DNA of 10,196 bases, taken from an uncultured archaeon (GTDB lineage Archaea; Asgardarchaeota; Heimdallarchaeia; Heimdallarchaeales; Kariarchaeaceae). This document shows, piece by piece, positions 8,561 through 9,259 of this stretch. The DNA lies in the NCBI GenBank assembly GCA_964645535.1, contig CAZYCQ010000083.1:1-10196 (forward strand), given 5' to 3'. Numbering within the stretch: the first letter of the stretch is position 1; every line of letters begins with the position of its first letter. The translations under genes were made by a program, and so were the position numbers. A model generated the notes under the pieces. That model saw only the letters and a list, made by a program, of their open reading frames with translations. It made no database searches and was not told the DNA's origin.

Positions 8561-9259
8561 TCAAAAGAAATCATTGAGTGTCAACTGCTGAGTAGGTACC
8601 TTTCTGACTGGATTTCCTGAAAATTGGTATTCTGTAGGAGGAAGAAAGGGATGGGAAATCAATTGATCAAGCCAGGTATTTTCAGCTATCCGTTTCTGAC
8701 GTACATGAATCTTGCAAATTGACTGGATAGGATTGTTCTGGGTGACATTGTCTGTCAGAATGATAGTGGCTCCCTTGACGGCCATTTGTTGCAGAAGCCG
8801 AGTTGATTGAACCAAAACAGTTTCAATGCCCGGATAGGAATCTTCCTCGATTGCCTGTCTAAAAAGGGAGAAGAAAGAAGGTGCAAGAAGGAGATGTGAA
8901 GGACCATTGATATCCTTTGCAACGTTTTGTACCAGTGAAAGACTTTGAAGTACTTGAAAAGGACGGGCTAACGATATCCTCTCGAGAATATCAGATGTAT
9001 CCAAATCACCTGCGTATTGATCCAAAAGAAATGGATTGAAAGAGTTGGAAGAATCGATGACCGAGATTTTCCAGTTATGGACATATGCATCCAACAGTAC
9101 AGAATGCATGGCCTTGTTCAATGCCTTGATATCCTCGCTCTCAATGAGATGAACATTTCCGACCAACCAATCCGTAAACAGACGATAAATGCGAGGAAGG
9201 GTTCGAGGGTTAACTTGGAGTCCCTTATTAGACAGAAACGCTGCGGAAACCAGCATCAT
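8561..9259 (-). CDS. Inactivated RadA-like protein associated with PolB2, with C-terminal PIP box
   Basis: RecA-fold remnants VIDSSNSFNPFLL and ILERISLARPFQVLQ (compare YIDTEGSFRPER and ILNRIFVGKAPSTEKQ in the RadA of this window); no Walker A, Walker B Asp lost (LLLAPS); ends QLTLNDFF; 9 bp upstream of polB2. Confidence 0.8.
   Translation of the reverse strand: MMLVSAAFLSNKGLQVNPRTLPRIYRLFTDWLVGNVHLIESEDIKALNKAMHSVLLDAYVHNWKISVIDSSNSFNPFLLDQYAGDLDTSDILERISLARPFQVLQSLSLVQNVAKDINGPSHLLLAPSFFSLFRQAIEEDSYPGIETVLVQSTRLLQQMAVKGATIILTDNVTQNNPIQSICKIHVRQKRIAENTWLDQLISHPFLPPTEYQFSGNPVRKVPTQQLTLNDFF

Follow-up and report, generated by a model that had tools for sequence, protein, structure and literature searches.

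The PolB2-iRadA operon was first described by Makarova et al. 2014 (PMC4104785). Timinskas, Timinskas and Venclovas 2025 (PMC11791011) later assembled PolB2, iRadA and three PPB2 subunits in silico into a heteropentamer, the archaeal mutasome. Many iRadAs in that study carry C-terminal PCNA-binding motifs, which are commoner and nearer to QxxLxxFF than those on PolB2, a pattern for which the authors use the term "shuttling"; the motif is rarely seen on both subunits, with the warning that weak motifs may be missed. Clamp complexes were modelled as well, including a Lokiarchaeota PCNA:iRadA pair; operons of Loki- and Heimdallarchaeota belong to that data set, and one from Heimdallarchaeota is among those modelled. 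A 2026 review still describes the PolB2 mutasome complex as a prediction awaiting experiment, and our literature search found neither an experimental paper on a PolB2-iRadA complex nor experimental PCNA-binding data for any iRadA.

Here we analyse a stretch of 10,196 nucleotides from a Heimdallarchaeia genome (contig CAZYCQ010000083.1; hereafter the window), in which all three predicted mutasome gene families (iRadA, PolB2 and PPB2) are found (Table 1). A clamp motif on iRadA is already published as an in silico prediction, and the Asgard copy is a new example of it, not a new mechanism. We consider it quite likely that this iRadA, as a non-catalytic part of the PolB2 mutasome, anchors the complex to PCNA by its tail, with PolB2 probably adding a second, weaker contact.

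Table 1. Features of the predicted mutasome locus, with positions in the window.
Feature	Position	Strand	Remarks
iRadA gene, 232 aa	8561-9259	minus	RadA/Rad51 ATPase-fold core, without HhH and Walker A; Walker B Asp and catalytic Glu replaced
Canonical PIP box QLTLNDFF, iRadA residues 225-232	8564-8587	minus	exact pattern match, conservation, docking model
Flexible linker, iRadA residues ~212-224	8588-8626	minus	pLDDT 50-67; length and sequence vary among orthologues
FxxA-type RadA/Rad51 polymerisation motif remnant, LVSA	9242-9253	minus	F or W first in 22/29 orthologues, Ala in 29/29
PolB2, 847 aa	6008-8551	minus	first Asp of DxD replaced: LTD at 6746-6754 (residues 600-602)
PolB2 loop 432-447, F434 then D444-x-GG	7211-7258	minus	conserved in alignment; insertion into iRadA predicted in PMC11791011
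Gln-less PIP-like tail of PolB2, AISLTSFL	6011-6034	minus	hydrophobic half conserved in the class
RadA paralogue, Walker A and FxxA intact, without HhH	4682-5587	minus	in one operon with the PPB2 genes
Second PPB2-like copy, without MGRT	4429-4692	minus	such duplications described in PMC11791011
PPB2 (arCOG07300-type) copy with MGRT N-terminal arm	4227-4454	minus	family features as in PMC11791011
Upstream DNA motif	9279-9308	minus	also at 5624-5652; candidate common regulatory site of both operons
Upstream DNA motif, second copy	5624-5652	minus	precedes the radA-PPB2 operon

Fold and lost ATPase motifs of iRadA

The AlphaFold2 model of iRadA (pLDDT 86.5) contains a RadA/Rad51 core that begins near residue 36. 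RAD51, RadA and DMC1 are its top Foldseek matches (E 1e-14), and the iRadA profile aligns with the active RadA of the window at an HHalign probability of 96.5%. The N-terminal helical (HhH) domain is gone, the Walker B aspartate and the catalytic glutamate are substituted, and Walker A (GxxxxGK[TS]) is missing in all 29 Heimdallarchaeia orthologues. We infer from the sequence that iRadA is an ATPase-dead RadA. The full-length gene occurs in 29 genomes of the class, and an orthologue is present in each of the 11 other genomes of the family.

The C-terminal PIP box

The last eight residues of iRadA, Q225-L-T-L228-N-D-F231-F232, are directly followed by the stop codon and match Qxx[LIM]xx[FY][FY] exactly. 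In the AlphaFold2 model they fold as a short helix (residues 228-231), and between them and the RecA-fold core lies a linker with pLDDT below 50 at residues 219-222. The first-pass annotation had read this end as an exact Qxx[LIM]xxFF motif behind a likely flexible tail and had named conservation in homologues as a check, and on all these points it holds: of 29 Heimdallarchaeia orthologues, which share some 20-70% identity, 28 end in the hydrophobic core [LIM]xx[FYW][FYWL], 20 have glutamine at the first position and 9 match the strict pattern. Synonymous differences at the Q, L, F and F codons among the closest relatives indicate that selection acts on the protein.

The one orthologue without the tail belongs to the family member G006, where a hidden PIP motif was sought beyond the early stop and none was found. 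Two homologues from the database are tail-less as well, so that the list comprises P0011 (L112:4066-4701), P0015 (L113:781-1395) and G006 (L062:9107-9709); the first of these sits close to uvrA and an operon for ribosomal proteins, at a locus from which polB2 is absent. In some lineages the motif is thus dispensable.

The window's own genome (G000, 89% complete) contains the exact terminal pattern in 6 of 3,096 ORFs of at least 100 aa; by chance 0.18 would be expected on average, and none of 300 rounds of shuffling the last 30 residues gave more than 2. Besides iRadA, the pattern ends PolD DP2, FEN1, the RFC large subunit, a Hel308-type helicase and a fifth, unannotated ORF, and relaxed or near-terminal matches add PolB, PolY, NreA, RNase HII, UDG, alkylguanine transferase and a DNA methylase. 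Such a motif at the very end of a protein is therefore a mark of clamp partners in this organism.

Terminal PIP-type motifs were also observed on four proteins of this genome that are not established PCNA partners: C65:16216-16704 (L013), C16:13676-14047 (L023), C63:13400-14329 (L019, DUF2797) and C116:733-2019 (L017, a MerR-HTH with a C5 methylase). These proteins are candidates for new clamp clients.

PCNA and the docking model

A single PCNA gene was found in the genome (L008:1075-1881, on contig C20), with its C-terminal APR motif kept; three profiles detected no second PCNA in the 89%-complete genome. The protein is divergent: it scores 61 bits where the TIGR00590 cut-off is 99, and is 20-30% identical to its counterparts in most other genera of the order, despite which the PIP motifs of its partners in the genome are canonical. 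Both this score below the cut-off and the missing tails of G006, P0011 and P0015 count against a tethering of the complex to PCNA by iRadA.

In a modelled complex, PCNA and iRadA residues 200-232 reached a score of 0.72, compared with 0.01 for the best of three controls, on a textbook pair that can pass by likeness. Of 80 solved complexes 58 attain the mark applied, as do 2 of 110 mismatched pairs; at least 65% of contacts are shared between runs, and the partner pLDDT is 51-52. The modelled contacts connect iRadA 223-232 with PCNA 45-49, P236 and A255-P256-R257, which we take to be the standard PIP pocket. Complexes of PIP peptides with PCNA are common and found in textbooks, and for this reason we regard the docking score as a sign of likeness, not as proof of binding.

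PolB2 and its own tail

F434 and D444 of the PolB2 loop are invariant in 16 sequences. The loop precedes the D(K/R) motif, which here has D-N in place of D-K, and is disordered in the monomer model (pLDDT below 50 at 429-448). In the same type of model the C-terminal tail forms a short helix (843-846) on a disordered stretch.

It is possible that this tail is a decayed remnant and that the polymerase meets PCNA only through iRadA. Glutamine, which is found in only 5 of 28 PolB2 tails, and G001, in which a PolB2 without a terminal motif stands beside a canonical iRadA, point in this direction, as does the distribution in 32 non-Asgard archaeal operons (mostly Bathyarchaeia), where one relaxed pattern used throughout detects the motif on iRadA in 22, on PolB2 in 2 and on both in 1 and thus reproduces the published either/or picture (PMC11791011). 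Among 24 Heimdallarchaeia genomes, however, the relaxed pattern ends 23 iRadAs, the hydrophobic half is kept by 18 PolB2s and both tails are present in 17, against a background of 8%; these genomes are related and 12 of the 24 come from one genus, so that the paired counts are not phylogenetically independent. The match in the PolB2 of G014 is the last core helix and was left out of these counts. Furthermore, the tail-less iRadA of G006 is paired with a PolB2 that ends in LxxFF, and PIP boxes without glutamine serve the human polymerases eta, iota and kappa in PCNA binding (PMC7225939). We consider an exclusive contact through iRadA doubtful.

The retention of the tail in most Heimdallarchaeia and the binding of Gln-less motifs in human polymerases make a weak clamp contact of PolB2 probable, with iRadA probably as the main anchor and not the sole one. 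Two relatives outside the genome set carry glutamine on both tails. The first-pass annotation had called the PolB2 tail degenerate, which is correct for the missing glutamine of AISLTSFL; the hydrophobic half kept in most Heimdallarchaeia shows that it has not simply decayed. Its proposal that the dead ATPase is a PCNA adaptor recruiting PolB2 gains from the conserved clamp-type motif, and PCNA tethering is the best reading, yet PolB2 probably provides a second, weaker anchor beside iRadA, and PPB2, the third predicted component, is encoded in the window as well.

Some Heimdallarchaeia have polB2 genes of about 1,300 aa (L116:4800-8810, L144:2769-6596, L153:2469-6326), and the first of these contains an intein that includes a LAGLIDADG domain. 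Where polB2 is split beside P0002, the splits were dismissed as assembly artefacts, as their positions differ among assemblies; the only one inspected (L003) lies at a run of N.

Gene neighbourhood and operon layout

The polB2 gene begins 9 nt downstream of iRadA, and the two PPB2 genes follow 1.3 kb further on the same strand. The RadA paralogue situated between polB2 and the PPB2 genes appears active from its sequence; it has close orthologues in 7 of the 11 other family genomes and adjoins PPB2 in G001 and G002. The two operons are divergent neighbours in G001 and lie on separate contigs in G002; family f5 has the compact order iRadA-PPB2-polB2. Several further members of the window's family do not have iRadA and polB2 as neighbours, with different contigs even in G003 with its 10 contigs, and this lack of linkage is a further point against iRadA as a tethering subunit of the mutasome. 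A DNA motif precedes both operons of the window, and a pattern built from its two copies retrieved no third copy in the genome; we regard it as a candidate damage-response operator.

Several additional observations concern this region and its counterparts. A 206-aa gene at 3623-4243, without a Pfam match, overlaps the PPB2 gene with MGRT, is found at the same position in G001 and is a possible regulator of the module. A 90-aa ORF at 9782-10054 resembles the C-terminal end of the glyoxalase encoded at 2561-2941, which suggests a decayed glyoxalase duplicate and a pair, at 9782-10054 and about 2400-2600, that brackets the cassette. The genome has six Rad51-family matches, two of them with long N-terminal regions that resemble repeated HhH units. 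G018 and G014 encode a protein of 262-266 aa that starts with MGRT and looks like two linker-joined PPB2-type units (L064:1641-2429, L066:2-802), with a PIP-like LxxWL near its C-terminus; the PolB2 of G014 lacks a tail motif, and PPB2 may be a further subunit to which the clamp motif can shift. A readthrough fusion of iRadA and PolB2, in frame across the 9-nt spacer in G000 and G001, was rejected since the spacers differ in G002 and other relatives.

The N-terminal FxxA-type motif

Just before its core, iRadA carries a motif of the FxxA type in register with that of two HhH-less active RadAs, a comparison restricted to these two since MAFFT misaligned the motif of the HhH-bearing RadAs. The residue three positions before the alanine is F in 18, W in 4, L in 5, V in 1 and I in 1 of the 29 orthologues. 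In the published model the pocket of iRadA is filled by PolB2, so that a retained FxxA motif would dock on a different RecA-fold protomer, for instance an active RadA or a second iRadA. Heimdallarchaeia iRadAs may thus also dock on active RadA by this motif.

This motif leads to an alternative in which part of the work of iRadA is independent of PolB2: it would be a recombination regulator on the clamp that holds the RadA filament by FxxA and PCNA by its tail, caps or inhibits RadA at stalled forks and steers between recombination and translesion synthesis. Support comes from the persistence of the motif despite the loss of the ATPase motifs and of HhH, from the upstream DNA motif shared by the iRadA operon and that of the active HhH-less RadA paralogue, and from the genomes in which iRadA is unlinked from polB2; the Myxococcus ImuA, which binds and inhibits RecA1 (10.1101/2020.12.14.422803), is a loose precedent. 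On the other hand, the first position is leucine and not phenylalanine in the genus of the window, the motif might serve self-association or packing of iRadA, and among 32 iRadAs from non-Asgard archaea a crude pattern detects it in just 4. We consider such a regulator somewhat unlikely, and note that it is compatible with a PCNA-tethering subunit of the mutasome.

A GAGG-like element overlaps the iRadA stop 8 nt before the polB2 start, but an origin of the PIP match as a by-product of this ribosome-binding site, or by chance, is extremely improbable in view of the conservation at the protein level with synonymous codon changes and the genome-wide enrichment among known clamp partners, and the by-product reading is refuted by the persistence of the motif where polB2 is not downstream.

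Proposed mechanism

The motif and its conservation, the fold, the lost ATPase motifs, the gene linkage and the modelled docking, as described above, are results of the present analysis, and the architecture of PolB2, iRadA and three PPB2 is adopted from the literature, where it is a model. DNA damage would induce the mutasome genes, as taken from the literature on Sulfolobus Dpo2. In the assembled complex the filament-mimic loop 432-447 of PolB2 would enter the RecA-fold pocket of iRadA, and the MGRT arm of PPB2 would be wedged between the two. By its linker, iRadA would then place Gln225, Leu228, Phe231 and Phe232 in the pocket of a single PCNA protomer, a binding that we infer from the motif. 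An error-prone extender polymerase, if the activity of Sulfolobus Dpo2 applies, would thereby be recruited and held on the clamp at a stalled primer end, and the Gln-less tail of PolB2 would probably make a weaker second contact with another protomer of the PCNA trimer.

A more elaborate arrangement is conceivable for Heimdallarchaeia, in which a two-point grip on PCNA, strong by the canonical motif of iRadA and weak by the Gln-less one of PolB2, of the kind found in eukaryotic translesion polymerases, is combined with the FxxA motif of iRadA plugged into active RadA; we regard this combination as unlikely. If true, it would form a chain from PCNA by way of iRadA to the RadA filament, with PolB2 in the iRadA pocket, and would couple the filament end to clamp-bound error-prone synthesis. 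Such a coupling would parallel the activation of Pol V by RecA and the capping of filaments by Rad51 paralogues.

Comparison with known systems

The locus shares several features with the mutasome of PMC11791011. In both, iRadA lacks the ATPase site and the N-terminal helical domain and carries a C-terminal QxxLxxFF-type motif that is stronger than that of PolB2; the three gene families, the filament-mimic loop of PolB2 and a duplicated PPB2 with only one MGRT copy are likewise shared. The differences are that both tails carry the motif in 17 of 24 genomes of the class, which is rare in that study, that an FxxA-type motif is seen on iRadA, which is absent from the main text of that paper, and that the module is split into two operons with an active RadA paralogue added. 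What the present analysis adds is the conserved Gln-less second tail on PolB2 and the retained filament motif on iRadA, which refine the published either/or picture. With a canonical motif, one detected PCNA and an origin in the Asgard class closest to eukaryotes, the locus provides a clean test case for the PolB2 mutasome prediction.

Dpo2 of Sulfolobus (PMC7390963, PMC8764526) belongs to the same polymerase family and likewise has the first Asp of DxD replaced. The damage induction and extender activity were shown in Sulfolobus, not for the Asgard PolB2 of the window, and induction by damage with mutagenic extension is known for Sulfolobales only.

The bacterial ImuA'-ImuB-DnaE2 system (PMC11791113) also attaches a RecA-family accessory protein by a filament-mimic motif and gains access to the clamp through a non-catalytic subunit. 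It differs in that the clamp motif resides on ImuB, a dead Y-family polymerase, and not on the RecA homologue, and in its C-family polymerase and beta clamp; a counterpart of ImuB is absent here, and the Myxococcus ImuA is reported as an ATPase. No Y-family gene was found in the window and the polymerase is of the B family, so that the locus does not belong to the ImuA-ImuB-DnaE2 system. The likeness to ImuA and ImuB drawn in the first-pass annotation is a fair analogy, not a membership, and the published comparison is with Pol V.

In E. coli Pol V Mut (UmuC-UmuD'2-RecA) the polymerase likewise sits on the oligomerisation surface of a recombinase-family subunit, and small subunits insert an N-terminal arm (PMC11791011). 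There, by contrast, the recombinase subunit RecA is an active protein, and the clamp motif, which RecA lacks, is found on UmuC.
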